In this document: in pieces, positions 39,912 to 61,476 of the stretch
Position numbering within the stretch: the first letter of the stretch is position 1
Layout: each line of letters begins with the position of its first letter
NCBI GenBank assembly: GCA_964594295.1
Contig: CAZQPP010000001.1
Coordinates: forward strand, 5,039-69,038
Reading direction: 5' to 3'
DNA: 64,000 nucleotides
From: an uncultured Myxococcales bacterium
GTDB lineage: Bacteria; Myxococcota_A; UBA9042; UBA3505
The notes under the pieces: model-generated
The model's database searches: none
The model's input: the letters and a program-made list of their open reading frames with translations, nothing else
Told to the model about the DNA's origin: nothing
Made by a program: the position numbers and the translations under genes

Positions 39912-39984
39912 GCGTCATGCACACCCGAGTGGCCCACGAGCGCCGCTGAACCCTGAGGCCACCTCCCGCTGACAACCGACCGCC

Positions 39985-40668: not shown

Positions 40669-40954
40669 CTTCAGCGCCGTCATCGGGCAGCTCCGCGCCA
40701 CGGGGAGGGCGCAGATGCGATTCGAGGGCGGCTCGATGCGCCCGCTGCTCGAGTCGGGGCGGGTATACACCTTCGAGTTTGCCGAGCGCTACGAGGTAGG
40801 GGACATGGTCTTCTGCCGCGTGGACGGCAGGTACATCGACGCCCACCTGGTGCGCGAGGTAGACGCCGAGAAGGGATACTTGATCGGCAACAACCTGGGA
40901 GGGAAGCCGGACGGGTGGACCTGGGAGGTCTTCGGGCGGATCGTGGACGCTTGA
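40649..40954 (+). CDS. Small protein with a LexA/S24-peptidase-like signature (tentative)
   Basis: ORF-track 101 aa, overlapping the RNA ligase gene by 20 bp. EGGSMRPLL resembles the GxSMxP Ser-nucleophile motif of S24/S26 peptidases. A downstream Lys (AEKGYLIGNN) could be the general base. Confidence 0.35.
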   Translation: MSMDRRDFSAVIGQLRATGRAQMRFEGGSMRPLLESGRVYTFEFAERYEVGDMVFCRVDGRYIDAHLVREVDAEKGYLIGNNLGGKPDGWTWEVFGRIVDA

Positions 40955-43080: not shown

Positions 43081-46000
43081 CTACCTCCCCAGCGAAGCCC
43101 CCACGAGGCGGACGACGCAGCGCCCGAAGGCCGAGACCGCTGAGCTCATGTCGTCGTCGAGGATCTCCACGTGGTGCGGGAAGGTCACGTGGTCGAGGCG
43201 GCGAAGCGCGACCTGCACGCACAAGAAGCCGTGACGGCGGGTGAGCTGGGCGACGAGGTTTCGGAGCGCCTCCACCGTGCACTCGGTGGGAGAGCCGTCG
43301 CTCACCATGATCAGCAGGCGCCGGCTCCGCTTGGAGCTCATGGCCCTCTTCGCCGCCGCGAAGAGGGCCCCCGCGTCGTTGTTGCCGCCGCCGACCTCGA
43401 GTGAGGCCGCCGCGCAGCGTCGCCCGCCTCCAGCCTCGAAGAGGGTCTGGTCGTCGAAGCCGTAGAAGCGGGTATCGATCCCGGGGAGCCCGCGAGTGGC
43501 CGCCGACAGCAACGTGGCGAAGAGCTTCGCCCTCTCGTGGTTCTCGTTGATTGCCATCGAGCCCGAGCAGTCCACGAGCGTGCCGATGTGCAGGTCGTTT
43601 CTCAGCACGCGCTCGGAGGCGCAGAGCATCCTTGGGTCGGAGCGGAGCAGGGCGGCGCGGATGCGCCCGCGGTCGACGCTTCGGCCCTGCACACGCCCGC
43701 CTTCCCGGGTGTATCCGATGCCCATGCGCACGAAGAAGCGACGCATGCGCCTCGCGAGAGGCGCCACGACGCGCTCGTGCTCCGCGTAGAGCCTGGGGTC
43801 GAAGGGCACGACGACCCTCTCGACAAGCTCGGCGAAGTCGGTGTCTTCGCCCAGGTTGATCCCACGCACCACGAGAGACGAGTCCGGCCCGTCCTGCTCG
43901 CTCCGGGAGACCACGGCCACGCCGCCGGCGGGGCGCAGCAGCTCGTCGGCGGCCTCTTGCAGATCCTCCTGCGTCATGCCCTCGCTGGCGGCGTTGAGCT
44001 CGGTCACCTCCACCCTCTCGATCGCGCCGGGACCAAGAGGAGCGAGCAGCGCGGTCTCGTCGCCGAAGATCGCCTTGAGCTCCCGTGCCACTCCGAGGAG
44101 CTGCTCCATCGACGAGCCCCGGAAGCTGCGCCCGAACAGAGTGAGCGCCTGCGCGACGCGCTCGTCCCCGTGGCGGTTGCCGAGCCCCATGCGCAGCGCG
44201 GTCACGAACCTCGCGAAGCTGTTCTCCGATCCCTCCAGCGAGCGCAACACCGAGCCCGAGCGGAGGCGGACGCTGTCTGGCGCCCTGCCGACCTCCAGCG
44301 CAGTGGCGGTGAGCACCTCGAAGCAACGCCATCCCAGGCTGGCGGTGAGGCTCCTCGCATCCACCTCGCGCCGCGAGTGGCGGAATGCGTAGGCCGCGAG
44401 CACCTTGAGGGCGTTCCCGTGCTCCTCGTCGCGGGCCCTCATGTTGCGCTCGAGGTGCTCGTCGGCCACCAGGTTCAGCAGGTCCCCGAGGCCTTCGTCG
44501 AGAGCCTTCGCCCAAACCTCCGCGCTGCGCGGCCCTCCGTGGTAGACGTGGTGGCCGAGCTCGTGGAGGACGAGCGCGCGCACCACCGTTTCGCCGTTGG
44601 GCTCGACGCGGAGCAGGGGCAGTGGGTTGACCTGGATGCAGCGCGATCCCATCCGCGCGTAACCCAGCTCGCCGCCGGCCAGCATCTCGATCTCCATCTG
44701 CGCCCCCGTGAGCAAGCGGGCGTTGCGCTCGGCCTCGAGCCACACGCGGGCCAGCTCCCGGAGCCGAGGGTGCGGCGCTCGAGGGGCCCGCCGCAACGCG
44801 GAGAGCGCCGCTCCCTGCGCGCTCTCGGAGGGGGTGGTGCCGGCGATCGCGGCCAGGAGCTCGGTCCTGACGTCGGCCTCTTCGGGCGAGCCGACCAGCG
44901 CGTCGACGAGCTCGCAGGTGATCTCGTCTCGGCCGGCAGCGAGGACGGCAGCGGTCACGCGCCTGAGAGCCTCCGGCTCGGCCAGGCGGACAATCCCCTC
45001 CCACAAGGAGTCCCAGCCGACCGGGCTTCTGCCCAGGCCGGCGTATGGCAGCAGCACCGGCAAGCCCTCGGCTCGCCCCTTCGAGAGCAGGGCCGCGGCC
45101 GCTTCGACCCGCAGCTCCTCGAGCCGCTCAGTGCCGGTGTGCAGGAAGGCTGCGAGGGCGTCGAGCACGATGTCGGGGCGCCAGCTCACCCTGTCGACGA
45201 GCCACGCGACCGCCCGGCCCCAGGCGCTGTGGTGAGGCGAGACCGCGAGCGCGCACGCCAACCTCTCGGCGGAGGCGCCCAGGTCTTTCAGGCGGCGCCA
45301 GTCCTCGGCGAGGAACCAGGACGTCTCGCTCGGCGCGACCGCGGCCCGCAAGGCGTGCTCCAGGGCCCCGCTGTCGCCGCGCGCCATCAGGGCGAGGGCT
45401 ACGCAAAAGCGCACCTCGGGGAGCCCCGACGTGTGGGCGGCCAGCGCCCGGCAACGATCCAGGGCGGCTCCATCCGGCCAGTCGGGGATGGTGAGCGCGA
45501 TCTCCCGGACGCAGGGCAGAGCGGGCACGCTCTCCAGAGCCGCCGCGACGCTGGCCGCTCCAGGCTCGCCCAGGGCGAGCAGAGAGCGCGCCGCCGCCGT
45601 GGCGACGTCGGCGAAGGCGCTGCGGCAGAGCTTCTCCAGGCGCTTCGCGCTCCGGCTCGTCCTCGCCTCCTCGAGCAGGCTCAGGTCCGACGTGCCGGTC
45701 ACCACCTTGGTGACGGAGGCTTTGCCGAGGCCGTGCGAAGAGACCCACCGCGACAGAGCCACGCGGACGTCCATCGACATCTCGCCGATGAGGCGGAGCA
45801 CGTTGTTCCTGCGGGCGTCGATGGCCTCCACCTCCACCCGGCCGCGGTGGAAGTCGACCAACATCTCGCTTGCGTGGACCCTGAGCGCCTCGCACCTCTG
45901 CTCCATGTTGAGGCCGCGGCTGGGAGGGAGAAGCTCGGCCAGCTCGGATCTACCCTCGTCCAGGTCTCCAAGGGTGAGCACGTCGAAGAGCAGCTCGATG

Positions 46001-48309
46001 GTGCCCGCAGGCGCCAGCTCTGCGAGGTCTCGGTGCTCGCGCCAGCGCCGGTGGCGAACGGTGGCGGAGCAGCCCCGCCAGACGATGGCGCAGAGCCTGT
46101 CGGACTCCAGCCCCAGCGCCCACTTCAGCATCCCGAGGATTCCCCCCTCCCATGAATCGGCTGCCAGCGCGAACAACGAGAGGTTCGCGGACCACCGGTG
46201 CAGCAGGGCGTTCGCGAAAAGAGAGGGCTGCGGAAGCCCGGCCGCGGCTTCCACGACGCAGCGTTCCAGCGTCGCGTCGAAGCTCTCACCGTCGATCTCG
46301 TATCGGCTGAAGAGACGATCGACCTCGTCAGGAGGGTCGTCAGCGAGGATCAAGGCCTTGCAGATCCGGACGTCGCCGACAGGAGCACCCGAGCGTGCGT
46401 CGAGGGCCGCGGTGAGGCCTCGGGAGGGCCTCTCGGGGAGCATCTCCACCACGAAGCCAAGGTCGTGCTCCGGGCAGGCGGCGATCCTGTCGTGCTCTCC
46501 TTGCTTCAGCTCGTGGGGCGGCTGCCCGCGTGCCGGCCGCGGGGAGGTCTCCTTCCGTGGCACCGCCAGCTTCGCCCAGTCGGCGACGACCGGGTCCGGG
46601 TGCCCGAGGAGCTCGCTCATCAGGGCGTGGGCGACGGGAAAAGGGAAGCCGGGCGCGACAGGCTCCATCGACGCCAGGGCGACGATCTCCTCCTTCGAGA
46701 GCCTCTTGAGAGCAGAGAGCCAGCTGGGCTTCCGGTATCGCCGGCCGAGCCAGCCGAGGAGGGCCGGTGCGAGGGAGCTGTGCTCGCGCCCCGGGGCTCC
46801 GAGGACAACCGGCAGGACTTCCCGGAGGGCAAAGCCCTCTCCTTCGAGCCAGGAGCCGACAGCCTCGCTGAGCGCCGCCGCTCGCCTCTCGGAGAATCGG
46901 CCCTCTGTGGAGGCGTGGGCGAGGAGAGCCTTCACGAGGCCCATGCGCTCGCCGGCGGGGCGGAGACGAAGCACCGCGAGCTCCTCGAGACGGTCTAACG
47001 GGAGCGCCGCGGCCAGGACCGTCACGTGAGCCGCCGTCGTCGTCCGCGGCTCCTCGAGCAGCGCCCGGATGATCTCGCTGAAGGCCGCCTCTCCCGGGCC
47101 CCGCTGGGGCAGGGAGCAGAGCGCGTCGAGCCCTGTCGGGCCCGCGTGCAGCGACTCGACAACGCGTTGCTTCCCCCAGGTCCTCAGCAGGCGAACGAGG
47201 CAGGAGCCCGAGAGCAAGCGGGAGATCCCGGCGGCGACCGGCAGGTCGAGGCAGCCGTCCTCCCTGTCCGCGATGCCGCAGCCGATCACCGCGGGGAGAT
47301 CCTGCCATCGCTCGGGTCTGCGCAGATCGACCCCGGCAAGAGTCGCAGCGGCCGCCTTTCGGTCGCCGACGGGGATGCCGGGATGAGCGAGGAGCCCGGG
47401 CAGGATCACGCTGGAGAGCGCGAGGGCGTCGGTGGGCCAGCGGGGCTTGCCGAGGAGCACGGAGGCCACGCTCAGGGCAACGCTCCAAGGGGCGAAGCGA
47501 ACGGCTCGCCTGCTCTCGAGGTCCTCACGCAGGGCCGCGAAGAAACGGCGCGTCAGCGGCGAGTCCATCGCGCCGGCGCCGTCGGGGCCGGGGGGGCAGA
47601 AGAGCCCTACGATCCGGTCGAGGTCGTCCTCCTGAGCGCGTGCCGCCTCGACGGAGCGCTCGATCCCGGCGGGGGTGTCCTCCCCCGAGGGCGCCGCGGT
47701 GGCGCGCCCGCGAAGAGGCGCGAGGAAGTCGGCCAGCCGGACCGACTCGAGCACCTCGACTATGAGGCGCCCCGCGACCTCGCGGTCGAGCTCCCCGGCT
47801 TCGACGCCCTCGAGGAGCAGGCGAACGCTCGCCGGCGAGAGCGGGCCCCACTGGTTGAGGCGCCGCTCCGCCAGGTCGGCGCTCTCGGGGTCAGCGAGGG
47901 CGTGCGCCGCGAGAGAGCTCATCGCCTTGGTAGCTTGCCGCTGCTCCACGGAGAGGACGGCGAGGCGCGCTACCGGGCGTGGGTGAAAGAGGGCATGGCA
48001 CAAGCGCCCCGGCTCCTCGCTGGAGGAGCGCATGAGCGAGTATGCGGCGCTCTCCACAACCGCGTCCTCCCTGTCGTCGAGGGCCCGGACGATCCAGCGG
48101 AATGCGTCCGTCCCCCTGGCGCCGGCAAGGACCTTCACCGCGGCGGCGCGCACCGCCGCGTTCGGATGCTCCAGCGCCGGCTCCAGCACGCCCCAGAACG
48201 GGAGGCGTTGCCTCGGGCCAAGGCGTCCGGCCTCCCGCAGGAGCTCCTCGAGATCGGGATGATCGAGGTTCCCGCCGGCGAGGAGGCCGAAGAGCAGGGT
48301 GTCTCGCAT
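43081..48309 (-). CDS. Large HEAT-repeat protein with a C-terminal HExxH metallopeptidase-like domain and vWA domain (extended DUF2201-like architecture)
   Basis: ORF-track 1742 aa, ATG start. N-terminal HEAT-like repeats (NAAVRAAAVKVLAG...). HExxH in RALVLHELGHHVYH. MIDAS in GTLVDCSGSMA near the C-terminus. Confidence 0.8.
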   Translation of the reverse strand: MRDTLLFGLLAGGNLDHPDLEELLREAGRLGPRQRLPFWGVLEPALEHPNAAVRAAAVKVLAGARGTDAFRWIVRALDDREDAVVESAAYSLMRSSSEEPGRLCHALFHPRPVARLAVLSVEQRQATKAMSSLAAHALADPESADLAERRLNQWGPLSPASVRLLLEGVEAGELDREVAGRLIVEVLESVRLADFLAPLRGRATAAPSGEDTPAGIERSVEAARAQEDDLDRIVGLFCPPGPDGAGAMDSPLTRRFFAALREDLESRRAVRFAPWSVALSVASVLLGKPRWPTDALALSSVILPGLLAHPGIPVGDRKAAAATLAGVDLRRPERWQDLPAVIGCGIADREDGCLDLPVAAGISRLLSGSCLVRLLRTWGKQRVVESLHAGPTGLDALCSLPQRGPGEAAFSEIIRALLEEPRTTTAAHVTVLAAALPLDRLEELAVLRLRPAGERMGLVKALLAHASTEGRFSERRAAALSEAVGSWLEGEGFALREVLPVVLGAPGREHSSLAPALLGWLGRRYRKPSWLSALKRLSKEEIVALASMEPVAPGFPFPVAHALMSELLGHPDPVVADWAKLAVPRKETSPRPARGQPPHELKQGEHDRIAACPEHDLGFVVEMLPERPSRGLTAALDARSGAPVGDVRICKALILADDPPDEVDRLFSRYEIDGESFDATLERCVVEAAAGLPQPSLFANALLHRWSANLSLFALAADSWEGGILGMLKWALGLESDRLCAIVWRGCSATVRHRRWREHRDLAELAPAGTIELLFDVLTLGDLDEGRSELAELLPPSRGLNMEQRCEALRVHASEMLVDFHRGRVEVEAIDARRNNVLRLIGEMSMDVRVALSRWVSSHGLGKASVTKVVTGTSDLSLLEEARTSRSAKRLEKLCRSAFADVATAAARSLLALGEPGAASVAAALESVPALPCVREIALTIPDWPDGAALDRCRALAAHTSGLPEVRFCVALALMARGDSGALEHALRAAVAPSETSWFLAEDWRRLKDLGASAERLACALAVSPHHSAWGRAVAWLVDRVSWRPDIVLDALAAFLHTGTERLEELRVEAAAALLSKGRAEGLPVLLPYAGLGRSPVGWDSLWEGIVRLAEPEALRRVTAAVLAAGRDEITCELVDALVGSPEEADVRTELLAAIAGTTPSESAQGAALSALRRAPRAPHPRLRELARVWLEAERNARLLTGAQMEIEMLAGGELGYARMGSRCIQVNPLPLLRVEPNGETVVRALVLHELGHHVYHGGPRSAEVWAKALDEGLGDLLNLVADEHLERNMRARDEEHGNALKVLAAYAFRHSRREVDARSLTASLGWRCFEVLTATALEVGRAPDSVRLRSGSVLRSLEGSENSFARFVTALRMGLGNRHGDERVAQALTLFGRSFRGSSMEQLLGVARELKAIFGDETALLAPLGPGAIERVEVTELNAASEGMTQEDLQEAADELLRPAGGVAVVSRSEQDGPDSSLVVRGINLGEDTDFAELVERVVVPFDPRLYAEHERVVAPLARRMRRFFVRMGIGYTREGGRVQGRSVDRGRIRAALLRSDPRMLCASERVLRNDLHIGTLVDCSGSMAINENHERAKLFATLLSAATRGLPGIDTRFYGFDDQTLFEAGGGRRCAAASLEVGGGNNDAGALFAAAKRAMSSKRSRRLLIMVSDGSPTECTVEALRNLVAQLTRRHGFLCVQVALRRLDHVTFPHHVEILDDDMSSAVSAFGRCVVRLVGASLGR

Positions 48310-48341
48310 CTGGTGCCCGCACAGGCAGGACGTGAGCGCCT

Positions 48342-50870
48342 GTGGCTAGCAGCCGCGCCGGCCGGTCGCAAGCTGCGACCTCGTCGACGGCGCTGCCGTC
48401 TGGGAGCGGAGAGGCGCAGCCCACGACACAGCTCCGGCAGCTGGACACAAAGTGTCCAAGGCGGGGTGTAGGTTCCTCTCCCAGAGCCGCCGAGGAGACC
48501 CAATTGCACGACTTCGTACACCTGCACGTGCGCTCCCATTGCTCCTACATGGCCAGCAGCGTCAGGGTGCGTGAGCTGGTTCCAAGGGTGGCCGAGCTCG
48601 GCATGCCCGCGGTCGCGCTGACGGACTGCGAATATTTGGCGGGTGCGATCGATCTCTACACTCGCGCTCGGCGAGCAGGCATCCGCCCCATCCTCGGATT
48701 CGCCGCCACCATGGCCTCGTGTGCCGCCGGCGAGGTCGACGGCGATGCTCGCCACGAGATGCTGCTGCTGGCCGCCGGCATCGAGGGCTACCGCAACCTC
48801 TGCCGGCTGGTTCGCGCGGCCGGCGACGCCCGTGCAGCGACGGGGCGGTCCGGGCTCGAGCTTGCAAGCCTGGCGGAGCACTCGGCCGGCCTGGTGCTGC
48901 TGACCGGAGGCCTCCGCGGAGGGCTGGCGCGGCTCCTGATGCGCGGCGAGCGCGACGCCGCCCGGGAGCGGCTATGCCTGCTCCGCGATGCCCTGGGGCC
49001 GGAACGAGTCTTCGTCGAGCTGCGCGGCAACGAGACCCATGAGGAGCGGGAGGCGAACCGCGGTCTCGTCGAGCTCGCGCGGGCGGAGGGTGCGCCGATC
49101 GTCGCCACGGCGGATGTGCGCCACCTGCGCCCGGAGGACAGGGAGGCCTACGAGGTCTTGAGAGCCATCGGCAGGGGAGGGCGGGTGAGCGAGGAGGCGA
49201 GCCCGGAGCAAGAGCCGGCGCGGCTTCACCTGGCCTCGCCCGACGAGATGGCCGCGCGCTTCGGCGAGCTCCCGGAGGCCTTGTCGGCCACGCTGCGCGT
49301 CGCCGAGATCTGCGATGTCGAGATCGACGCGGGCACCGTGCGCATGCCGAAGCTGGAGCGTGGGCTCGGGCAATCCGCCGCGGCCCTCCTCGCCGAGAAG
49401 GTGGCCGCCGGGCTGCGGAGGCGCCTCGGAGACGCCGGTGAGGACACCGGGGTTAAAGGTGTCTCGATCTACGAGGAGCGGGTGCGCCGCGAGCTCACCG
49501 TCATCGAGGAGGTCGGCTTCACGGATTACTTCCTCGTCGTCGCCGACTACGTGCGGTGGGCGAGGGAGGCCGGGGTGCCGGTCGGGCCGGGCCGCGGCTC
49601 CGTCGGTGGGAGCGTGGTCGCCTGGGCGCTTCGAATCACCGAGATCGACCCGATCCGCCACGGGCTGCTCTTCGAGCGCTTCATGAACGCCGAGCGGGCC
49701 AACGCGCCGGTCATCTCCGTGGACCTCTGCCCGGTGCGCAGGCTGGAGGTGGCCGACTACATTTCGAGGAGGCACGGCATCGAGAAGGTCGCCTGGGTCG
49801 GCGAGCACGAGGAGATCCTCGGCGGGGCGCTCGTGGGCGACGTCGCCGACGCCCTCGGGATGAGCGGCGCGCGGATCGAGCGGATCCGCGACCTCGTTCC
49901 GAGCCACCGGTGGTCCTCCGTGCGGTACGCATCGGAGCACGATGAGGAGCTGCGCGACCTTGTGAGCCGGGACGCCGCCTATGCGCGCCTGCTCGCTCTG
50001 GCCGACCAGCTCTGGGGCCTCTACCGCGGCCCCACGGCCCACCCACCGAACCTGGTCATCTCCGACGAGCCCCTCGCGGGCATCGTGCCCGCAACCCGCG
50101 ATGTCCGGGGCCTCCTGACAACGCAGTACGGCAGATACGATGTCGAGGACCTTGGCTTCTTCCCCCTCGAGCTGCTCGGGCTCGAAGTGCTCACGGTCCT
50201 CGACCACGCCGAGAAGCTCGTGCGTCAGGGCCCGGTGCCGCGTTTCTGCCTCGAGTCCATCCCCTTGGACGGCGAGGAGGCCTTCGAGCTCATCTCATCG
50301 GGCGACACAGGCGACATCTTCCAGGTCGGGTCTGCCGGCTTCCGTGAGCTGCTCGCGTGGCTCCAACCGAGCTGCTTCGAAGACCTCTGCGCGGCGGTCG
50401 CCCTGTATCGGCCCGGGGGCCTCGGCTCGGGGATGCTCGCGGACTTCGGCAAGCGCAAGCGCGGCGAGGCAGAGGTGCTCTACCCCCATCCCATCCTCGA
50501 GGGGTGCTTGAAGGAGACCTACGGGGTCATGGTCTACCAGGAGCAGGTCATGCGGGCCGTCGTCGAGGTCGCGGGCTTCACGATGGACGGGGCCGACCTG
50601 CTCAGGCGAGCGCTCGGCACGAAGAAGGCTGACGACGTGGAGAAGATGAGGTGCCTCTTCCTGGAGGGCGCCGCGGAGCGCGGCCTCGGAGCAGGCGAGG
50701 CTGGCGAGATCTTCTCGGCGCTCGAGCACTACGCCGGGTACGGCTTCAACAAGGCCCACTCGGTAGCCTACTGCCTGCTCACCTACCGCTGCGCCTACCT
50801 GAAGGCTCACTTCCCGGATCTCTACTCGGAGGCCGTGGAGCGGTGCGCCAGCGGGCCGTCCTCGGGCTGA
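48342..50870 (+). CDS. DnaE-like DNA polymerase III alpha fragment: PHP domain plus polymerase core, lacking the C-terminal third (beta-clamp-binding, OB, tail). Possible gene remnant.
   Basis: ORF-track 842 aa. The likely true start is TTG 48504, preceded by GAGGAG with a 6-nt spacer. PHP motif FVHLHVRSHCSY. Conserved palm/fingers motif NKAHSVAYCLLTYRCAYLKAHFP lies close to the stop. An unrelated minus-strand gene begins 78 bp downstream. Confidence 0.6.
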   Translation: MASSRAGRSQAATSSTALPSGSGEAQPTTQLRQLDTKCPRRGVGSSPRAAEETQLHDFVHLHVRSHCSYMASSVRVRELVPRVAELGMPAVALTDCEYLAGAIDLYTRARRAGIRPILGFAATMASCAAGEVDGDARHEMLLLAAGIEGYRNLCRLVRAAGDARAATGRSGLELASLAEHSAGLVLLTGGLRGGLARLLMRGERDAARERLCLLRDALGPERVFVELRGNETHEEREANRGLVELARAEGAPIVATADVRHLRPEDREAYEVLRAIGRGGRVSEEASPEQEPARLHLASPDEMAARFGELPEALSATLRVAEICDVEIDAGTVRMPKLERGLGQSAAALLAEKVAAGLRRRLGDAGEDTGVKGVSIYEERVRRELTVIEEVGFTDYFLVVADYVRWAREAGVPVGPGRGSVGGSVVAWALRITEIDPIRHGLLFERFMNAERANAPVISVDLCPVRRLEVADYISRRHGIEKVAWVGEHEEILGGALVGDVADALGMSGARIERIRDLVPSHRWSSVRYASEHDEELRDLVSRDAAYARLLALADQLWGLYRGPTAHPPNLVISDEPLAGIVPATRDVRGLLTTQYGRYDVEDLGFFPLELLGLEVLTVLDHAEKLVRQGPVPRFCLESIPLDGEEAFELISSGDTGDIFQVGSAGFRELLAWLQPSCFEDLCAAVALYRPGGLGSGMLADFGKRKRGEAEVLYPHPILEGCLKETYGVMVYQEQVMRAVVEVAGFTMDGADLLRRALGTKKADDVEKMRCLFLEGAAERGLGAGEAGEIFSALEHYAGYGFNKAHSVAYCLLTYRCAYLKAHFPDLYSEAVERCASGPSSG

Positions 50871-50947
50871 GCATGTAACCGCCCTTCGTGGCTTCGTCCC
50901 GGTTAGGTTGTCGGGGCCTGCGTGAGGAAATCCGCTTGCGCCGCACG

Positions 50948-51358
50948 TCAGTGGAGATCTTCGCCGGCCCGTCTCGCGGCATCGCGCACGACCTGGCGCA
51001 CGCGCTCACGCGTCAGGTTGATCGCGGCGCCGACGTCGGCGAGGGTCTGCCGACCGTGCTCGGCTATGTCCAGAGCGCAGGTGAAGGGGATCTCCCAGGG
51101 CGGGCGGTCTGGGAAGTTGAGCTTGATGGCACGGCTGCCGGGCTTGACGTCCAGGTAGAGGTGGTATCGACAGCCTACGAAGGGGCAAGGTCGCGGGCCG
51201 TCGCGACAATCCTCGCGACTGCGCGGGCGGTGGTGCTCCATCCAGTCCACGAGCTCCTTGCCGGCGGCCACCTCCTCGGGAGAGAGCCTCGGCGACGAGA
51301 TCGTGCGGGGCCTGGCCACGGCGCCGCGTCTTCCTTCGCGCTCCCGTGTCTTGGGCAT
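50948..51358 (-). CDS. Sigma-70 region-4-like HTH DNA-binding protein (putative regulator)
   Basis: ORF-track 136 aa. The C-terminal segment [26 protein letters not shown] matches the region 4.2 HTH pattern (TLEEIG..LGVTRERIRQIE..AL.KL). Divergent from the ATPase gene at 51506. Confidence 0.55.
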
Positions 51359-51505
51359 GACATGGTCCTCCGCATTCGGCTGCGGCGCTCGATAGTAATA
51401 GCCTTCGCCCGAGGGTGGTGGAAAGTTGTCAAGTTTTCTCGAATCGGCTCAACGTGATTCGGCGACAAGGGCTCGACCGGAGCAAGCTCAGAGACGAGGA
51501 AGCAC

Positions 51506-53998
51506 ATGTCGGAGCAGATCGCGACTCTCGCCCTTCAGGGGACGCCGTACACCGCGTTGGCCGGCTTCGCCGTGCGGAAGATCCTCTCGGCGGAGATCTT
51601 CTCCCACCAGGTGGGCTTGGGAGCGGGTTACCCGACGGCGCCCCTGGTCGCGGCGGTCTGTCGAGATCGTTGGACGGACCTCGGAGGTACGCTCTGCTGC
51701 TTGCCGGAACCCGTCGAGGGCCTGCTCGTGCTCGGGGCCGGCGCCGAGTGGGCTCCGTCGTCTCGCGAGCAGGCCTTTTGCGCCTTCCTCGCCGTCGGGC
51801 GGGGTGGCTGCACAGAGGAAGCGCGGAGCCACGCCGCTCGACAGGTGAAGAGCTTGTGGCTGCTCGTGTCGACCACCCTGGACTACCTTCAGCTCGAGAT
51901 GATCGACTCCGTGCAGGCGCTCCGCAACGTCTACGGAGCGGCGGACGCCGGCCGCACCGTGGAGATCCGGCGCCGACTCGAGCGCGTCACCATCGAGCAG
52001 GGCATCCTCGAGCGCAGACCGCTGGGCTTCTCCGGTACGGGCGACGCGCGCGAGCGGGTGCATGAACGAGGTGATGCCCCCGGGTTGGAGCACCTCTTCC
52101 CGTGGGTACCGAGCGACGACCCCTGGGGTCGCCTGGTCGACGCCCTCGAGCGCTCGGCGCCCGCTGCCCTGCTGGTGCACTTCCAGGGTTTGGAGCGCGC
52201 CCCCGAGCGCTGCATGGACCAGGCCCGCGGGGCGGTGTCGCGAGCCTACGACCTCCAGCACGACCCGCGGTGGGGGAAGACGGGAGCGCCCTCCGGCCTC
52301 GATCGCCAGGTGGCGGATCTCTACGACGCGGCGGTTGACCGGCTGGCCCGGATGAACGGCAACGTCCTGGCCATGCGCGTGTTCAGCGCGGGCGACATCG
52401 CCGAGACGCCGGGCCTGCAGGCCGTGGCGGTCCGCGCCATCGACGACGCCTCGGTCGATCCCGACCGGAAGCGGCGCCTGCCCCTGTTCCACGGTGGCGC
52501 CCGCACGGGGGTCGTGGGGTCGGAGGAGGTGCTCGTGCCATTCGCAGAGCCCGATCTCGACATCCTGTTCAGCCCGGAGGAGGCGGGTGGGGTCCTGCGG
52601 ACACCCGCCCCGCCGGCACACGACCTGGGCACGATGCGGGTGCTGCGCTCGCGGACGGCAGCCTGCACGGGCAAATCCGGCGATGACTGCGTCCTCGGAG
52701 TCAACGCCCACCGCGGTATCCGCCAGGAGATCGCGGTGGAGAGCCCCATGCGCTTCCGGCACACCTACGTCGTCGGCCAGACCGGGACCGGGAAATCCAC
52801 TCTGCTGCTGCACATGGTCCTCCACGACATACGGCGTGGACGAGGCGTTGCCGTTCTCGACCCCCACGGCACCCTCATCGAGGACATCCTGAAGCACACG
52901 CCCAAGGAACGCGCGGAGGATGTCGTCATCGTGGACCCGACCGACATCGAGCGGCCGGTCGGCTTCAACGTGCTCCGCATCACGGCCCACGACCCGACTC
53001 GCTACAGGCACGAGCGGGACATCCTCATCGACGATCTCTACTCCTACATCCACCTCACCTACGATCTGATGAAGGTGGGCGGGCCGCGCTTCGAAGACCA
53101 CTTCCGCTCGATGTTGCGTCTTCTCATGGGAGACGAGGCCCCCTCCCCGCCGCTCGTCCCCAACCTGATGATGCTGCGCCCGGCATACAGGAGCCAGGAG
53201 CTTCGTGACCGTCTGCGCAAACGGCTCACGCAGGACGACGCTGTGCTCCAGAGCTTCTTCGAAGAGGCGGAGGGTGTAACCTCGAGCGACGAAAGGCTCG
53301 TCAACCTGGCGCCCTACGTCACCAGCAAGTTCAACCGCTTCCTCGCCGACGCGGCGCTCAGGAACATGACCTGCCAGGACGGCATCCTCGACTTCGGCGA
53401 GATCATAGAGAGCAAGCGCATCTTGCTCTTCAACCTCGGAAAGGGCCGATTTGGAGAGCAGGCCGCAGGGCTCCTCGCTGCTCAGCTGGTCTCCCGGCTG
53501 CGTCTAGCGGCCATGGGACGCAAGATCGACCATCACACCCCTCCCTTCTTCCTCTACGCCGACGAGTTCCAGATGTTCGCCGGCGAGCGCTTCGACGAGC
53601 TCCTCGCGGAGGCTCGCAAGTTCCGCCTCGGCCTCGTCCTCGCGCACCAGTTCGCCGGCCAGCTCCCCGAGAAGACGCTCCACGCCATCTTGGGCAACGT
53701 CGGCACCGTAGTCGCTCTCCGTACCGGTGCCCGCGACGCGGAGATGCTCGCCCCCCTCTTCACCCCCAGCTTCCTCGCGCGAGACCTGTCGAGCCTCCCG
53801 AACTTCGTCGCATACGCCCGCAGCGCCGGCCAGCTCGGCACCGAGCCCTTCAGCCTCGAGCTGGCCCCGCCGCCCGCCAAGGGCGATCCCAAGCTCGCCG
53901 AGGCCGTACGCCAGCTCTCCCGGCTGAAGCACGGCCGGGACCGCTGTATCGTAGAAGCCGAGATCAACGCGACCTACCGCGCGTTCCTCTCGGGATGA
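51506..53998 (+). CDS. FtsK/HerA/TraG-superfamily P-loop ATPase (AAA_10/DUF87-like) with a ~400-aa N-terminal region of unknown function
   Basis: ORF-track 830 aa. AGGAAG lies 3 nt before the ATG. Walker A HTYVVGQTGTGKST. Walker B PFFLYADEFQ. The C-terminal region resembles the TraD/TraG-type coupling-protein tail. Confidence 0.75.
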   Translation: MSEQIATLALQGTPYTALAGFAVRKILSAEIFSHQVGLGAGYPTAPLVAAVCRDRWTDLGGTLCCLPEPVEGLLVLGAGAEWAPSSREQAFCAFLAVGRGGCTEEARSHAARQVKSLWLLVSTTLDYLQLEMIDSVQALRNVYGAADAGRTVEIRRRLERVTIEQGILERRPLGFSGTGDARERVHERGDAPGLEHLFPWVPSDDPWGRLVDALERSAPAALLVHFQGLERAPERCMDQARGAVSRAYDLQHDPRWGKTGAPSGLDRQVADLYDAAVDRLARMNGNVLAMRVFSAGDIAETPGLQAVAVRAIDDASVDPDRKRRLPLFHGGARTGVVGSEEVLVPFAEPDLDILFSPEEAGGVLRTPAPPAHDLGTMRVLRSRTAACTGKSGDDCVLGVNAHRGIRQEIAVESPMRFRHTYVVGQTGTGKSTLLLHMVLHDIRRGRGVAVLDPHGTLIEDILKHTPKERAEDVVIVDPTDIERPVGFNVLRITAHDPTRYRHERDILIDDLYSYIHLTYDLMKVGGPRFEDHFRSMLRLLMGDEAPSPPLVPNLMMLRPAYRSQELRDRLRKRLTQDDAVLQSFFEEAEGVTSSDERLVNLAPYVTSKFNRFLADAALRNMTCQDGILDFGEIIESKRILLFNLGKGRFGEQAAGLLAAQLVSRLRLAAMGRKIDHHTPPFFLYADEFQMFAGERFDELLAEARKFRLGLVLAHQFAGQLPEKTLHAILGNVGTVVALRTGARDAEMLAPLFTPSFLARDLSSLPNFVAYARSAGQLGTEPFSLELAPPPAKGDPKLAEAVRQLSRLKHGRDRCIVEAEINATYRAFLSG

Positions 53999-54076
53999 GG
54001 CGGAGAAGGACGCGCGCGGGAGACGCACAGCTGCTACACAGCACAACAGGATCGGCCACCGGCAAGGAGGTTTGAT

Positions 54077-54418
54077 ATGTGGCTCTTCACCGACTTCGGC
54101 TTCTTCAGCGTGGTCCAGAAGCCCGACACGAGCTGCCTGACCGTCAGGTCCAGGGTCGGGGACGATCTCGACCGGCTGCGGGAGCGCTACCTCCCCGAGC
54201 TCTCCGATACCGTGGTGGGCGGGGGAACCGACTACCCCTTCCGTGCCACGGTGTCCCACGCGGACTTCGCCGCCGGGCTATCGAGGATCGCGTCCGCCCT
54301 CGACTACTCCAACTTCAAGTACCGGGTCGAGGGCACCCTGGGTCGCGAGCGTTCGTCGGTGTACGGGCGAGTGTGGCAGGATCTCCTCGCGCTTGAGACG
54401 CCTGATGAGCGGGAGTGA
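54077..54418 (+). CDS. Hypothetical small protein
   Basis: ORF-track 113 aa. Strong RBS AAGGAGG 7 nt before the ATG. No recognisable motif. Confidence 0.5.
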   Translation: MWLFTDFGFFSVVQKPDTSCLTVRSRVGDDLDRLRERYLPELSDTVVGGGTDYPFRATVSHADFAAGLSRIASALDYSNFKYRVEGTLGRERSSVYGRVWQDLLALETPDERE

Positions 54419-54542
54419 CGCCTCCGGCCTCGCGCCAAGGTGGGCGGCATGTCCGGAGAACGCCCGGCGTGGCATCTTCCGGCCGTAGCACCTGACGCCC
54501 TCGTCGCGGTGCCCCGAACAACCGACACACAGGGAGGCTGGA

Positions 54543-56288
54543 TTGCGGGCCGACAATGACTGCGCCGTGTTGGAGCTCCGGGTCGTGGGCTCCCTCGCGG
54601 GTACGTTCCGCGTGAAGCGCTACCAGCGCGGGTACCGCTGGGGCGAAGAGGAGGTGACGCGCCTGCTCGACGACATCTGGTGCAGCCGTGGGCAGCCCTA
54701 CTGCCTTCAACCCGTCGTGGTCAAGGCCGCCGGCCCCGATGAGTGGGAGCTGGTCGACGGCCAGCAACGCCTGACGACCCTGCTGCTGATCCTGCTGTAC
54801 ATGAAGCGAGCGGAGCTGAAGCGGATCGAGCCGAAGTACAGGATCCGCTACGACACCCGCCCCGAGCTCGCCAGGTACTTCGAGACCTTCGATCCCGACC
54901 TGGCCAAGACGAACATCGACCTGTACCACCTTCACCAGGCCTACTCGTGTATCGCCGGGTGGTTCGAGTCGCCGGACCGCGAGAACGGGGATCCTCAGCT
55001 GGCCGCCGACGACATCTACGGCTGCCTCAGCCGGACGGTGCGCGTGATCTGGTATCGCGTGCCGGAGGCGACCAGAGCCACGACGCTGTTCCGCCGGCTG
55101 AACGTGGGCAAGATCTCCTTGACCAACGCCGAGCTCGTCAAGGCGTTGCTGCTCTCGCGCAGCCGCTCGGAGGTGTCCGGATCGAGCCGCGCCGAGGAGC
55201 GGGCCGCGCAGTGGGACGCCATCGAGCGGGACCTGCAGGACGAAGACCTGTGGGCCTTTGTCAGCGACGGTCACGAGGCCGGCCGGGAGGCGACGCGTAT
55301 CTCCCTGCTGCTCGACACCCTCGCGGGCGGGCTCCGTGGGCGCAAGCGCCCCCGCGTCCACACCTTCGACGTGCTCCGCACCAGGATCGAGGCCGACGCC
55401 GAGGCATTCTGGACCAGCGTGGTAGACCTGTACGCCCGCATCCTCGGGTGGTTCGCCGACCGCAGCGTCTACCACAAGGTGGGTTACCTGGTCGCCACGG
55501 GCGTTGCGTTCGCCGACCTGGTCGGGCTGGCCGAGGGCAAACGCCGAAGCGAATTCGAGGGCGCGCTCGACGCGGCCATTCGTGACCGCCTGAGGTTGAC
55601 CGCCTCACGGGTACACGATCTGAGGTACGGGACGAGCGGGCACGAGGAGAAGCTGCACCGGCTCCTGCTGCTCATGAACGTCGAGAGCGTGCGACGGATG
55701 GAGAACACCTCCGAGCGGTATCCGTTCAGGCTGCACCGTGAGGGCACCGGGCGCGACAAGCCGCGCTGGTCGCTGGAGCACATCCACGCGCAGCACGCGG
55801 AGCAACTGAACAAGGAGGTCGAGAGGCGGAGCTGGCTGCAGGAGCACAAGCGCTCGTTGCAGGATCTGCCGGACTCAGCGGGCGCCGAGAATCGGAGCCT
55901 CCGCCGCCGCATCGACGTGGCGCTCGGCAAGGTTGACGGCGACACCTTCGACAAGCTGTCTGGCGATGTGGCCGCGCACTTCTCGCGCGACTCCGGCGCC
56001 GAGATGCACGCGATCGGCAACTTGGCCCTGCTGGAGAGTGGACAGAACACGGCGCTCTCCAACTCGGTCTTCGAGGTGAAGCGCCGCAAGATCCTCGAGC
56101 TTGACCGTGCCGGTGAGTACATCCCGATTTGCACGCGCCGCGTGTTCTTGAAGTACTACGCGGGTGCCGACGCGCAGCAGGTGCACTTCTGGAGCCGCCG
56201 CGACCGCGAGGCCTACCTGGATGCGATGTTGGGCAAGGAGCGCGGTGTGCTCCGCCCGTACCTCATGCCGGAGGCCGAAGGCGCATGA
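54543..56288 (+). CDS. GmrSD-family type IV restriction enzyme-like protein (DUF262 ParB-like N-terminal domain plus DUF1524 HNH-like C-terminal domain)
   Basis: ORF-track 581 aa. TTG start preceded by GGGAGG with a 5-nt spacer. DUF262 signature LVDGQQRLTTL. DUF1524 signature WSLEHIHAQH...GNLALLESGQNTALSN. Confidence 0.85.
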   Translation: MRADNDCAVLELRVVGSLAGTFRVKRYQRGYRWGEEEVTRLLDDIWCSRGQPYCLQPVVVKAAGPDEWELVDGQQRLTTLLLILLYMKRAELKRIEPKYRIRYDTRPELARYFETFDPDLAKTNIDLYHLHQAYSCIAGWFESPDRENGDPQLAADDIYGCLSRTVRVIWYRVPEATRATTLFRRLNVGKISLTNAELVKALLLSRSRSEVSGSSRAEERAAQWDAIERDLQDEDLWAFVSDGHEAGREATRISLLLDTLAGGLRGRKRPRVHTFDVLRTRIEADAEAFWTSVVDLYARILGWFADRSVYHKVGYLVATGVAFADLVGLAEGKRRSEFEGALDAAIRDRLRLTASRVHDLRYGTSGHEEKLHRLLLLMNVESVRRMENTSERYPFRLHREGTGRDKPRWSLEHIHAQHAEQLNKEVERRSWLQEHKRSLQDLPDSAGAENRSLRRRIDVALGKVDGDTFDKLSGDVAAHFSRDSGAEMHAIGNLALLESGQNTALSNSVFEVKRRKILELDRAGEYIPICTRRVFLKYYAGADAQQVHFWSRRDREAYLDAMLGKERGVLRPYLMPEAEGA

Positions 56289-58534
56289 AGTCCCGCCTGA
56301 CATCCTACTCCGCCTTGTTCGATGAACCGGGCGGCGGTCACCCCGCCGTGGAGGCGGTGGAGATCCCGCTGATCCAGCGTGACTACGCCCAGGGGCGGGA
56401 GGGCAAGAAGGTGGAGCGTATCCGCCGCGACTTCCTGACCGTCCTCCTCGAGGCCGTGGACGGAGGGGAGGCCGTCAACCTGGACTTCGTGTACGGCGAC
56501 GTCGAGGCAGGAGTGCTACGTCCCCTGGACGGGCAGCAGCGCCTGACCACGCTCTTCCTCCTGCACTGGTACCTGGCCTGGCGGATCGACCGCCCGCTGT
56601 CGGAGCTCGGCTGGACGCGTTTCACCTACGCCACCCGGGCCACGGCGCGCACCTTCTGCCAGCGCCTGGTCGCCAACAGGCCCCCGGCCGCGACGCCGAA
56701 TGTCTCCGAGTGGATCACGGACCAGCCCTGGTATCTGTATACCTGGGATCACGACCCGACCGTGAAGGCGATGCTGGTGATGCTGGACGCGATCCACGAG
56801 CGCTTCGGCGCGATCGACCACGCCGCCGCCTGGCACCGCCTGGTGGAGGCTTCGCCCGGGTCCGTCACCTTCCACCTGCTGCCGCTGGAGGGCATGGGGC
56901 TCAACGAGGACCTCTATATCAAGATGAACTCGCGCGGGAAGCCGCTGACCGAGTTCGAGAACTTCAAGGCGCGTTTCGAGGAGCTGCTCGAGGGGAGCTG
57001 TGAAGATCGCGTGGAGGAGGTCGCGCGCAAGATAGACACGACCTGGGCGGACGTGTTGTGGCCGTTTGACGGCGGAGACCACGTGGTCGACGACGAGTTC
57101 ATGCGCTACTTCCACTTCGTCACCGACGTGATCACGTGGGAGAACGGAGAGGACCCGACGAGTGACGTCGAGGCGCAGGCGACCAGGCTGTTCGGTCCCG
57201 AGGCCGACGTGCCCGCGGGGAACCTGGACCGCCTTGTCAGGATGTTCGACACCTGGGTCGGCGTGGACGTGAGGGCGGCCTTCGAGGCCCTGTTTCGCGG
57301 CCCCGACCAGGCGGAGAGCGCGAACGGGCCGCACCGCCCGGTGCTGTTCGAGGCGCCCGCGAACCTGTTCGAGGCCTGCTGTCGTGACTACGGACGCGTC
57401 CGTGGCAAGGCACGCGACTTCAGCTTGAGCTCCACCCTGCTGCTCTACGCGGTGCTCGTCCACCGCCTCGAAGGCACCGCCGACTTCCTGCGCCGCCTCC
57501 GCGTGCTCCGAAACCTGCTCGCTTTCGCGGGTAACGAACTGCGGGCCGACACCATGGCCCAGTTCGTCAGGGACGCGCGCGAGCTCGTCGTCACGGGATC
57601 TCTCGACGACCTGCCGGCCTTCACCCGCGCTCGAGTCGCCGAGGAGCGGGCGAAGCGGGATCTGGTCGGAACCCACCCGAACCTCGAGCCGACCCTGCAC
57701 CGCCTGGAGGACCACCCGCTGCTACAGGGCACGCTCGTCGTTTTCGAGCTCGACCCGGCCAGCCTGAAGCGGCGTGCCGACGCGTTCTTGCGTCTGTACG
57801 ACGGTCGATCTCGTTATCCAGAGGTCACCGGGGCGTTGCTGGCCTGCGGCGACTACTCCAGGCGCCAGCGCAACGAGCGCTACTTCCAGCTGGGCTCACC
57901 CAAGAACGACGGTCCCTGGCGGTTGCTGTTCACCGCCGACCCGCGGGACAAGCAGGCGCGAGCGCGCCGGGCGCTCGGTGCTCTGCTGGACGCCGTCGCC
58001 GCCCCCGACATCGGCGGAGCGTTGACCACGGTGCAACGGAGCTTCGTCGACGAATGCGAGCGCGCGGCCCGCTTCGACTGGCGCTACTACCTCGTCCGCT
58101 ATCCCGCGATGCGCACCGGCGACAACGGCGTCTACGTCGGCTGGGAGGGCAGGCTGCGCTACCAGATCTGTATGCTCCGCGGCGTGAGCGTGGCTGGCTA
58201 CTACCGTGACGCCTACCTGTGGGCGCTGCTCGAAGAGAGCGACGCTTCGGGGGCGGTCGAGGACACGTGGTTCACCGGGTACGAGCACCTGGAGCGCTGG
58301 ATTACGCTGAAGCGAAGCCGCGCCGGGATTCGGTGCGTGGACGAGGGCCTTCGGCTCGACCCGCCTCGTCGGGTCCGCCACCGGCGGGCTTGGGACGAGG
58401 TCTGCACCAGGCACGGTGTGGTCGACGGTCTGCTGCCCGTCCCCCAGACCGCGGGCGATCCGCCCGTCGACACGGTCGATCGCGTGTCGCTGGGAGCGGC
58501 ATTGCTCCGAGACCTCGTCCGGGCCGGGTGCTGA
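56285..58534 (+). CDS. DUF262 (ParB-like NTPase/nuclease) domain protein, second subunit of the GmrSD-like pair
   Basis: ATG 56285 (MKSRLTSYSALFDE...) overlaps the upstream stop (ATGA). The ORF track shows an over-extended 801-aa version starting at 56129. DUF262 signature PLDGQQRLTTLFLLH. ~749 aa. Confidence 0.8.
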   Translation: MKSRLTSYSALFDEPGGGHPAVEAVEIPLIQRDYAQGREGKKVERIRRDFLTVLLEAVDGGEAVNLDFVYGDVEAGVLRPLDGQQRLTTLFLLHWYLAWRIDRPLSELGWTRFTYATRATARTFCQRLVANRPPAATPNVSEWITDQPWYLYTWDHDPTVKAMLVMLDAIHERFGAIDHAAAWHRLVEASPGSVTFHLLPLEGMGLNEDLYIKMNSRGKPLTEFENFKARFEELLEGSCEDRVEEVARKIDTTWADVLWPFDGGDHVVDDEFMRYFHFVTDVITWENGEDPTSDVEAQATRLFGPEADVPAGNLDRLVRMFDTWVGVDVRAAFEALFRGPDQAESANGPHRPVLFEAPANLFEACCRDYGRVRGKARDFSLSSTLLLYAVLVHRLEGTADFLRRLRVLRNLLAFAGNELRADTMAQFVRDARELVVTGSLDDLPAFTRARVAEERAKRDLVGTHPNLEPTLHRLEDHPLLQGTLVVFELDPASLKRRADAFLRLYDGRSRYPEVTGALLACGDYSRRQRNERYFQLGSPKNDGPWRLLFTADPRDKQARARRALGALLDAVAAPDIGGALTTVQRSFVDECERAARFDWRYYLVRYPAMRTGDNGVYVGWEGRLRYQICMLRGVSVAGYYRDAYLWALLEESDASGAVEDTWFTGYEHLERWITLKRSRAGIRCVDEGLRLDPPRRVRHRRAWDEVCTRHGVVDGLLPVPQTAGDPPVDTVDRVSLGAALLRDLVRAGC

Positions 58535-58544
58535 CGGCCCGGCG

Positions 58545-59477
58545 TCACTTGAGGTCGCAGAGCTCCACCTCCTCCAGCCGAAACGGCGGTGGAGAAGGGG
58601 TGCGGGCAACGAGCACGGCGGCAAGCGCGGGAAGCTCCCTGCCGTGCCAGGGGCGCGTTCGACTCGTCGTCCACAGCCGCGCCCCGGCCTCGAAGACCAC
58701 GCGCAGATCGCAGGGCTCGGTCTCCGCGCCGCCCCCGAAGCGCAGGAGCATGCCGTCCTTTCCCTCGACGAGGTCGACTCCGCACATCGCTCGGCGCGAG
58801 GTGGCCTCTCCCGGCTCGTCCGTTGTCACACCCAGCAGGGGGATCCTGGCGAAAGGGGCGCGGATCGCATAGACGCTCCCGCCCTCTCCGACCTCGAAGC
58901 CAACCGGGTAGTCGTCGCCGCGGACCTCTCGTGTCCTCGCTGCGTGCTCTCCGGTCCACCGGAGAACAAAGCCCCCGCGCCAGGGGTCGAGGGCGAGCTT
59001 CCACGGTGGGCCTCCTGAGGCGAGGCTCTCGTAGAAACGCCTGAACATGCGCACGATTATCAGCAGGAAGACCTCGCCCTGCCTGAGCGTGTAGGGCACG
59101 TCGACCTCCGGCACGGGCCGGCGCTGCTCGGGGTCCAGGAAGAGCACGCGGTTGGGCCGCTCCTCCTTCGGGAGGGTGAAGAGGCTGCGCTGTGCCTCGA
59201 GGTCAAAGCCGGGGATGGGCGGCCGGCCGTCTCGGAGAGCCCCCTCCCAGTGTCCCTGCTCCATCTCGGCGATCGCGTACTTCAGCGGCCTTGGCGGCTC
59301 CGAGAACTCGGCGCGCACGTCCTCGATCGCCTTGTCCGACAGGTTGGGAAAGTGCACGCAGAGGGGGCGGATGGCTCGGAGCAGGAGCTCGTGCTCGCGA
59401 AGGCTCACGACCTCTTCGCGCAGCAACATCTCGAGGTAGGGGTCGATGGGGTGCATGGTGGCTGCGAAGGTTAGCAC
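58545..59477 (-). CDS. Hypothetical protein
   Basis: ORF-track 310 aa, GTG start; the internal ATG at 59456 is an alternative. No recognisable motif. Protein-like composition. Confidence 0.45.
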   Translation of the reverse strand: MLTFAATMHPIDPYLEMLLREEVVSLREHELLLRAIRPLCVHFPNLSDKAIEDVRAEFSEPPRPLKYAIAEMEQGHWEGALRDGRPPIPGFDLEAQRSLFTLPKEERPNRVLFLDPEQRRPVPEVDVPYTLRQGEVFLLIIVRMFRRFYESLASGGPPWKLALDPWRGGFVLRWTGEHAARTREVRGDDYPVGFEVGEGGSVYAIRAPFARIPLLGVTTDEPGEATSRRAMCGVDLVEGKDGMLLRFGGGAETEPCDLRVVFEAGARLWTTSRTRPWHGRELPALAAVLVARTPSPPPFRLEEVELCDLK

Positions 59478-61286: not shown

Positions 61287-61476
61287 GGACACCTCCGAAT
61301 ACACGGCAGACGAAGCTCGGCTGCGCTTCTGACATCGGAGCCATGCCGGCAGGCCCACGTGTCCGCGGCCGGGGGGCGGCGCGCGAGCCTGTGGTGGCGT
61401 GTCCGTGGACCGTTGTTTGGGCCCGTAGTATCGTGCCTTCCAGCCGGATTGGGCCGGGTCGAACAGGGAGCACGAA

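Follow-up and report, generated by a model that had tools for sequence, protein, structure and literature searches.

The 64,000-nt stretch of DNA analysed here (the window; ~69% GC, with the usual excess of GC at third codon positions, GC3, in its coding genes) comes from an uncultured Myxococcales bacterium and encodes an 830-aa P-loop ATPase that, as modelled, has the architecture of VirB4 throughout, rather than that of a HerA or a coupling protein with a novel head. The reading favoured here, with moderate confidence, is that this ATPase is a motor derived from a type IV secretion system (T4SS), detached from its apparatus and reused as a defence module; the defence part of this reading is plausible and is drawn from genomic context alone. 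Membership of the FtsK/HerA superfamily had been proposed in a first-pass annotation, and it holds, with the protein placed in the T4SS-ATPase branch; the open reading frames (ORFs) of the ATPase and of a divergent 136-aa helix-turn-helix (HTH) protein lie where that annotation had put them, and the motifs that it quoted are present in the translations. The ATPase gene and its parts are:

51506..53998, + strand: whole gene of the 830-aa soluble VirB4-like ATPase (ORF, homologues, AlphaFold2 model, fold matches)
51506..52675, + strand: predicted N-terminal domain, residues 1-390, with a VirB4-N-terminal-domain-like (EccE-like) fold
52676..53998, + strand: C-terminal FtsK/HerA-superfamily P-loop ATPase domain, with a helical insertion at about residues 497-635 (Pfam, PADLOC, phrog, fold)
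52775..52801, + strand: Walker A motif GQTGTGKST, residues 424-432 (translation)
53555..53572, + strand: Walker B motif YADEFQ, residues 684-689 (translation)

The architecture was read from a structural model. An AlphaFold2 model built from an alignment of homologues is globular throughout (mean predicted local distance difference test score, pLDDT, 87.8; predicted template modelling score, pTM, 0.84), and in the PDB its fold is matched best by full-length chains of TrwK/VirB4 from the R388 T4SS, over ~950 alignment columns at E ~1e-13, then by TrwB and after that by HerA and Cag-beta. The N-terminal ~390 aa, left unassigned by the first-pass annotation, match the N-terminal domain of VirB4 by structure and are predicted to share its fold. 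The C-terminal domain superposes on TrwB with a target-normalised template modelling score of 0.60-0.66, the all-alpha insertion included. No segment of the protein is hydrophobic enough for a transmembrane helix, since no 19-residue window reaches the Kyte-Doolittle threshold of 1.6, and the combination of a VirB4-type N-terminal domain with the lack of such a helix makes the whole protein a soluble VirB4-like ATPase. It shares with VirB4/TrwK of R388 (PDB 7o42, 7o43, 8rtd) the fold of the N-terminal domain and an FtsK/HerA P-loop domain with intact Walker A and B motifs, but differs from it in being soluble and stand-alone and in not being recognised by VirB4 sequence models; moreover, neither a T4SS locus nor any of the partners VirB3, VirB6 and VirB8 turned up among the ORFs scanned in the window or beside the relatives. 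Membership of VirB4 by sequence was also tried with hhalign and rejected, the family profile matching Agrobacterium tumefaciens VirB4 with 13% probability and in the Walker B region only.

The sequence of the ATPase is that of a conserved, coding gene, with codon-position GC of 0.71/0.47/0.87. In a 41-sequence alignment of homologues, to which all conservation figures refer, G424 to S431 of the Walker A motif are invariant and T432 is at least 90% conserved, D686 and E687 of the Walker B motif are invariant, and about 50 further residues are invariant as well, among them R156, E359, P369 and R383 in the N-terminal half. The P-loop motifs being intact, the ATPase is probably catalytically active, to judge from its sequence. 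Among the Pfam models, TrwB_AAD_bind matches above its cut-off (E 3.7e-6; 26.5 versus 20.5 bits) and DUF87 falls below it (E 2e-4; 21.9 versus 23.2 bits). The former covers just the 65 residues around the P-loop (416-480), and PF02534 and TraG-D_C (PF12696) gave no match in the Pfam scan, so that the TraD/TraG-like tail of the first-pass annotation finds no support there. The protein also matches phrog_5156 (E 4e-34) and, in PADLOC, mad8 (E 9.7e-16; residues 418-742) and HerA (E 3e-5), whereas the NCBIfam models VirD4-like, TraD and TrbC match weakly and far under their cut-offs (e.g., 35 versus 250 bits). TrwB is its top sequence match in the PDB (E 2.5e-4), and the coupling proteins (TrwB, VirD4, TraD, TraG) are its closest relatives by sequence; unlike them, it has no N-terminal transmembrane helices, no PF02534 match and no linked relaxase or T4SS, and it carries the 390-aa VirB4-type domain instead. 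This corrects the labels [quoted passage not shown] and "conjugative DNA transfer protein", which would wrongly suggest a conjugative element.

In the mechanism proposed for the reused motor, the ATPase would form a ring like those of its structural relatives and would hydrolyse ATP to translocate a polymer or to remodel it, DNA being the likeliest one. It would do so in cooperation with a locally encoded effector, for which a small ORF (orf113) and two GmrSD-type genes are the candidates in the window and PLD or NYN nucleases the candidates elsewhere, and it may thus be described as a self-contained motor module with locally variable effectors. The candidates in the window lie directly downstream of the ATPase gene:

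54077..54418, + strand: 113-aa orphan ORF, orf113, 78 bp 3' of the ATPase gene (AAGGAGG 7 nt before its ATG; GC3 0.89)
54543..56288, + strand: GmrSD-type protein with a DUF262 N-domain, candidate local effector (GmrSD_N E 1e-26; GmrSD_C E 4e-7)
56285..58534, + strand: second GmrSD_N (DUF262) protein (Pfam GmrSD_N E 4.9e-14; no GmrSD_C)

Nothing in Pfam, PADLOC, PHROG or the PDB matches orf113, which forms a singleton cluster in the protein collection and is followed after a gap of 124 bp by the first GmrSD gene, whose GmrSD_C match extends over only 30 residues (488-517). The two GmrSD genes are joined by an ATGA start/stop overlap (56285-56288) and are apparently translationally coupled; they run in the same direction as the ATPase gene and resemble a pair of the type IV restriction kind, and PADLOC matches them to HEC-06, Orf5 and SspE. 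A search for intrinsic-terminator-like sites in 50800-54600, a stretch that takes in the ATPase gene, orf113 and the beginning of the first GmrSD gene, returned none.

Motors of the same superfamily are known in defence islands, where HerA (in Sir2-HerA, DUF4297-HerA and NurA-HerA) and the Mad8/DptH-like ATPases (MADS, Dnd-type) form ring-shaped motors that work together with a nuclease or NADase effector. The ATPase of the window differs from the defence HerA proteins in having no HAS-barrel N-domain and no Sir2, DUF4297 or NurA partner, none of these partner genes having been found beside it with Pfam and PADLOC. Mad8 has been described as HerA-like, in an operon (mad1-8) that includes a methyltransferase, a specificity subunit, a kinase and a DptG-like protein; by comparison, no methyltransferase or DptG-like gene adjoins the ATPase. 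Membership of MADS was considered and rejected: the mad8 hidden Markov model matches the generic ATPase core only, and the seven flanking proteins (43081-59477), which were run through PADLOC with the ATPase, gave no mad-family match. The closest published description is that of EccE3-HerA, in which a VirB4-like ATPase is joined to an EccE3-like domain; its gene lies between the VWA genes of extended Type III-A CoCoNuT operons, and its function is likewise unknown (Bell et al. 2024, eLife, PMC11090510). The protein of the window is likened to it by description only. Unlike that system, the window has no McrBC/CoCoNuT core or flanking (TerY-like) VWA pair next to the ATPase (Pfam found neither a VWA nor a McrBC gene adjoining it), the relatives have no conserved small helical partner, and VWA genes stand near some of them only. 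The assignment of the architecture is new for the gene in the window; similar ATPases had already been noticed in defence operons.

The ATPase has 442 homologues, many of them full length (~830 aa) and 40-50% identical over 98% of the sequence, from Acidobacteriota, Myxococcota, Planctomycetota, and cyanobacterial and other metagenome-assembled genomes. Its N-terminal domain is rare: a phmmer census of 1.84 billion representatives yielded 48 proteins or clusters (at 50% identity), and the carriers, fragments aside, are almost all 780-890 aa long with the domain at the N-terminus. The N-domain family is patchy across phyla and shows no conserved synteny. About 100 homologous loci were collected, and their flanking ORFs (n=2894) were clustered de novo, which brought out conserved neighbours in one distant subgroup only, the Patescibacteria-like relatives discussed below. 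When the neighbours in the window were compared by tblastn with 90 ATPase loci, with a reach of 10 kb, no homologue of the HTH protein, orf113, either GmrSD protein, a 310-aa ORF or the HEAT protein was found near the ATPase, and a low-stringency comparison of small downstream ORFs and of ~500-aa upstream ORFs across the loci gave no shared family. Across the loci of its family, nothing but the ATPase gene itself is conserved.

What the relatives have beside them is nevertheless often of the conflict type, and this in loci that are independent of each other. Tubulin_2 and vWA genes occur together near three of them (L001, L091 and the P0024 contig) and Tubulin_2 also near a fourth (L007); PP2C genes are found in L093 and L095, CHAT and TPR genes in L096, vWA, AAA and DUF5682 genes in L097, and CRISPR-associated genes in L004 and L094. 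A PLDc_2 nuclease lies near the ATPase in two independent loci (L001 and L093), an NYN nuclease is a neighbour in L012, and a weak Card1-like match was obtained in L035. An FtsH-like AAA-M41 gene stands two genes upstream of the ATPase in L001. In L105 (10001-22604; also L106 and L107) an 867-aa relative lies directly upstream of the gene series radical SAM, fvmX5, fvmX3-analog, 1056-aa protein, bpMoxR, ivWA and FtsH-like double AAA protease, which together make up the whole of the "FtsH ternary system" described by Kaur et al. 2020.

The window itself is a continuous run of conflict-type genes, and the context that the first-pass annotation had read as favouring defence is indeed there: besides the two GmrSD-type genes, the 64 kb hold TIR-NACHT-WD40, Tubulin_2-Macro-kinase, MoxR/vWA, HSP70, ARPP-1 and TerB genes. 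Three of its large proteins, and the AAA gene beside one of them, are:

25303-26736: MoxR-type AAA gene adjoining the Tubulin_2 gene
26806-31824, - strand: Tubulin_2 + Macro + Ser/Thr kinase protein, 1672 aa
32043-36086, + strand: TIR-NACHT(NPHP3_N)-WD40 protein, 1347 aa
36147-39911, + strand: Pkinase-WD40 protein, 1254 aa

Both WD40 proteins have an NLR-like immune architecture of the kind that is typical of multicellular bacteria. The gene companies of the window and of L105 also allow another explanation, namely that the ATPase serves the vWA-MoxR(-FtsH), Tubulin_2 or TerY-P conflict systems as an accessory motor or for secretion; it would then unfold, assemble or export protein effectors of those systems and would not act on DNA. 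This is unlikely, given that the nearest such genes in the window are ~10 kb (MoxR-like AAA) to 20 kb (Tubulin_2) away, that four loci (L004, L093, L095 and L108) have none of these genes, that the ATPase has neither a transmembrane segment nor a membrane partner, and that Kaur et al. 2020 do not list such an ATPase as a component.

Several observations weigh against the view that the ATPase is a VirB4-derived defence motor. By sequence, CagE_TrbE_VirB (PF03135) and the NCBIfam models VirB4, TraC and TrbE were unmatched at E<=0.01, and PADLOC recognises the generic ATPase core (mad8, HerA) and no defined system. The effectors are not constant either: a GmrSD homologue stands near none of the relatives (0/90 loci), and the nuclease neighbour varies from locus to locus, most loci having none, so that adjacency may be mere island residence. 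Two relatives point towards DNA transfer or replication. One of them, in L013 (8930-13724), is a distant 849-aa homologue (21% identity in the N-domain), after which come a 180-aa ORF and then a genuine type IV coupling protein (T4CP; PF02534 E 1e-30, two transmembrane helices), this two-ATPase module lying among Cas6-like, TPR, ClpB-like, radical SAM and kinase genes; the other is gp27.4 of phage SPO1 (L104, 2747-6284), a 906-aa protein of the phrog_5156 family (function unknown), ~25% identical in the ATPase domain and located between a "partition protein" gene and a "replication initiation by nicking" gene. Lastly, the Patescibacteria-like contigs (L016-L090; for example L070, 2537-12435, and L084) encode ATPases in housekeeping synteny, in the order SecY-Adk-Map ... 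ATPase ... Ndk and also with DnaX, UvrA/B, GyrB and PBP/FtsW, which means that the ATPase domain, taken by itself, is not specific to defence.

The L013 and SPO1 relatives lend themselves to the explanation that the ATPase belongs to a remnant or minimal DNA transfer system, either as a leftover of a conjugative or mobilisable element or as a single-protein translocase that moves the DNA of its own island. The fold and family, which are those of the T4SS ATPases, agree with this, as do the weak NCBIfam matches to VirD4-like, TraD and TrbC and the integrase-like and insertion sequence genes near the relatives in L001 and L108. We consider it distinctly unlikely all the same. The Pfam scan of the ORFs across the 64 kb revealed no relaxase, VirB2/3/6/8/9/10/11, T4CP or integrase, so that the first-pass statement that no conjugation genes are nearby can be extended to every window ORF scanned, and none of these stands beside the close relatives. 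Recurrent neighbour families scanned around at least 90 loci contained no T4SS or relaxase models except in L013; the possibility raised by the first-pass annotation that the relatives are flanked by T4SS genes thus comes down, over ~100 loci, to that coupling protein as the sole T4SS-type neighbour, beyond which no further T4SS genes were found in L013. The ATPase has no membrane anchor, its NCBIfam scores lie far under the cut-offs, as given above, and 80 of the 88 plasmids with a relative of the C-terminal domain are typed as non-mobilizable. The other phage relative besides SPO1 gp27.4 is gp156 of phage G, likewise ~25% identical.

The Patescibacteria-like relatives bear on the notion of a housekeeping DNA-handling ATPase, active in segregation, repair or uptake, that is in the island by accident. 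They are ~800-980 aa long, have only the C-terminal domain in common with the ATPase of the window (35-40% identity), and probably correspond to the orphan T4CP homologues reported for Patescibacteria, where 5713 such homologues were counted, only 148 of them near virB4, and exaptation was suggested (PMC12102498). They thus resemble the ATPase of the window in the ATPase domain, in length and in lying away from a T4SS, and this, with their core-gene contexts, speaks for a housekeeping function. On the other hand, their N-terminal halves are not detectably homologous to that of the window protein (hhalign probability 0.06), and they have small acidic partner ORFs. The N-domain family being rare, patchy and without synteny, it shows the opposite of the pattern of a housekeeping gene, and a housekeeping role is scarcely probable for the ATPase of the window. 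Upstream of the Patescibacteria-like ATPases a small acidic soluble ORF was found in 35 loci, and a DUF5663 ORF lies nearby in 17. A VirB3/VirB2-like identity was considered for two of the small upstream ORF families (c2 and c4); both are soluble and acidic, and the idea of a VirB3-like membrane partner was therefore dropped.

VirB4 is regarded as the single signature protein that occurs throughout type IV secretion. A soluble form of it that lacks the apparatus and turns up repeatedly in immune-type gene islands, among social or multicellular bacteria, would add one more to the motors for secretion or DNA pumping that have been put to use in conflict, as HerA, FtsK/EssC and MoxR have; and the small size of the family (the 48 clusters mentioned above), with its fixed architecture, makes it a tractable test case.

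On the other side of the ATPase gene lies the HTH gene, with which it had been paired in the first-pass annotation as a regulator and its motor:

50948..51358, - strand: 136-aa sigma-70 region-4-type HTH protein (Pfam, NCBIfam and PDB sequence matches)
51359..51505, no strand: divergent intergenic region, 147 bp

The gene is coding-like (codon-position GC 0.72/0.54/0.82), and the region-4-type HTH noted in the first-pass annotation is real but weak. Sigma70_r4 (PF04545) matches at E 1.7e-4 with 21.5 bits, under the 24.1-bit cut-off, the weak sequence matches in the PDB are to sigma region 4 in 36 of 36 cases, those in NCBIfam are limited to the region-4 part of the RpoS and RpoD models, and most of the listed homologues carry a precomputed PF04545 match. 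The match to the sigma models covers residues 98-133 only, the rest of the protein being a Cys/His-containing N-terminal part with no match, and in the absence of a sigma region 2 the protein is not a sigma factor. That it would be a dedicated transcriptional regulator of the divergent ATPase, forming a two-gene unit with the motor, is suggested by the intergenic region that the two genes have in common and by the DNA-binding type of the HTH. No HTH homologue, however, lies within 10 kb of any of the 90 ATPase loci, and the HTH family is large: it has ~2000 members in Myxococcota, which are 50-60% identical and bear the label "sigma factor-like HTH DNA-binding protein". Three relatives that were looked up are in housekeeping contexts, two of them in the arrangement PrkA-x-x-HTH-Lon/ClpX or PurH and the third beside RF-1, with no ATPase near. 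Nor does the intergenic DNA (51359-51505) have an operator-like repeat, no sigma-70-like promoter, terminator or inverted repeat having been found in it; a GAGGAAG Shine-Dalgarno-like motif precedes the ATG of the ATPase gene. We therefore regard a regulatory pairing as highly improbable; the HTH protein is probably not a dedicated regulator of the ATPase, the two being adjacent by chance of location.

Further upstream, beyond the HTH gene, is a gene related to the replicative polymerase:

48342..50870, + strand: truncated DnaE paralogue with active-site substitutions, upstream of the ATPase gene (NCBIfam DnaE model positions 4-778 of 1146)

This protein keeps the PHP, pol III alpha and finger domains and is without the HhH, beta-clamp-binding, OB and tau-binding parts. 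In comparison with eleven other aligned DnaE homologues, its catalytic motifs are altered from PDFDVDF to PVISVDL, from KFDFLGL to PLELLGL and, in the PHP domain, from HLHVHS to HLHVRS. Among the 90 loci, the only other DnaE-like ORF is found in the metagenomic locus L012 (15405-17918, + strand), where an ATPase of the family with 35% identity lies 3 kb upstream of it; the gene order there is ATPase-NYN-pentapeptide-DnaE fragment-CYTH-CYTH-DUF1848, and KFDFLGL has become KHNVLGL in this copy. The two copies end within ~3 residues of each other, just past the finger domain, and both lie within 3.5 kb of an ATPase of the family in otherwise unrelated loci. By a matrix of pairwise identities, which is not a phylogeny, the copy in the window is 46-51% identical to the DnaE of Myxococcales, and that of L012 is 47.5% identical to another deltaproteobacterial DnaE and 35% to the window copy; with each fragment closest to a different full-length lineage, two independent truncations are suggested.

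A split-intein DnaE was considered and rejected, as only ~11 residues follow the last conserved DnaE motif, too few to hold the N-fragment of an intein. Disruption of dnaE by the island was rejected as well: no C-terminal half is evident among the downstream ORFs of at least 100 aa, and the end-point shared with L012, together with the active-site substitutions, argues against a simple disruption. The truncated DnaE is a possible associate of the ATPase; it was absent from the other N-domain-bearing loci that were checked, and a pair of loci does not suffice to establish a link, striking as the coincidence is. One could imagine it as a catalytically dead, clamp-blind decoy or bait for phage proteins that target the replisome of the host, with the VirB4-like motor and the nucleases (GmrSD, NYN) as the responder, an idea that is speculative and, in our estimate, very unlikely. 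The pairing would gain in significance if it were general, since it would then point to surveillance of the replisome and to a guard or decoy logic of immunity built on the replicase. The truncated DnaE gene is divergent from that of a HEAT-repeat protein of 1742 aa.

This HEAT-repeat protein (43081-48309) is one of four further proteins encoded on the - strand, the others being a vWA(CobT_C)-like protein (16313-18181), a 990-aa protein with a C-terminal AAA_5 domain (18178-21150) and a second HEAT-repeat protein of ~880 aa (21256-23895); these vWA, AAA_5 and HEAT genes are possibly further vWA-MoxR or McrB-like modules. Nearer to the start of the window, and also on the - strand, are an HSP70-like gene (1156-3324), two giant ORFs of 1300 and 1117 aa with no Pfam match (4151-8053 and 8050-11403) and a gene for a kinase-like protein (10995-13400), a run that is reminiscent of the GTPase/HSP70/tubulin conflict systems (Kaur et al. 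2020). The genes of conflict-system type in the window are completed by those for an RNA ligase (39973-40668, + strand), a MoxR-like AAA protein (40915-42189, + strand), an ARPP-1 domain protein (60366-61358, - strand) and a fusion of an M48 peptidase with TerB (61477-62790, + strand).

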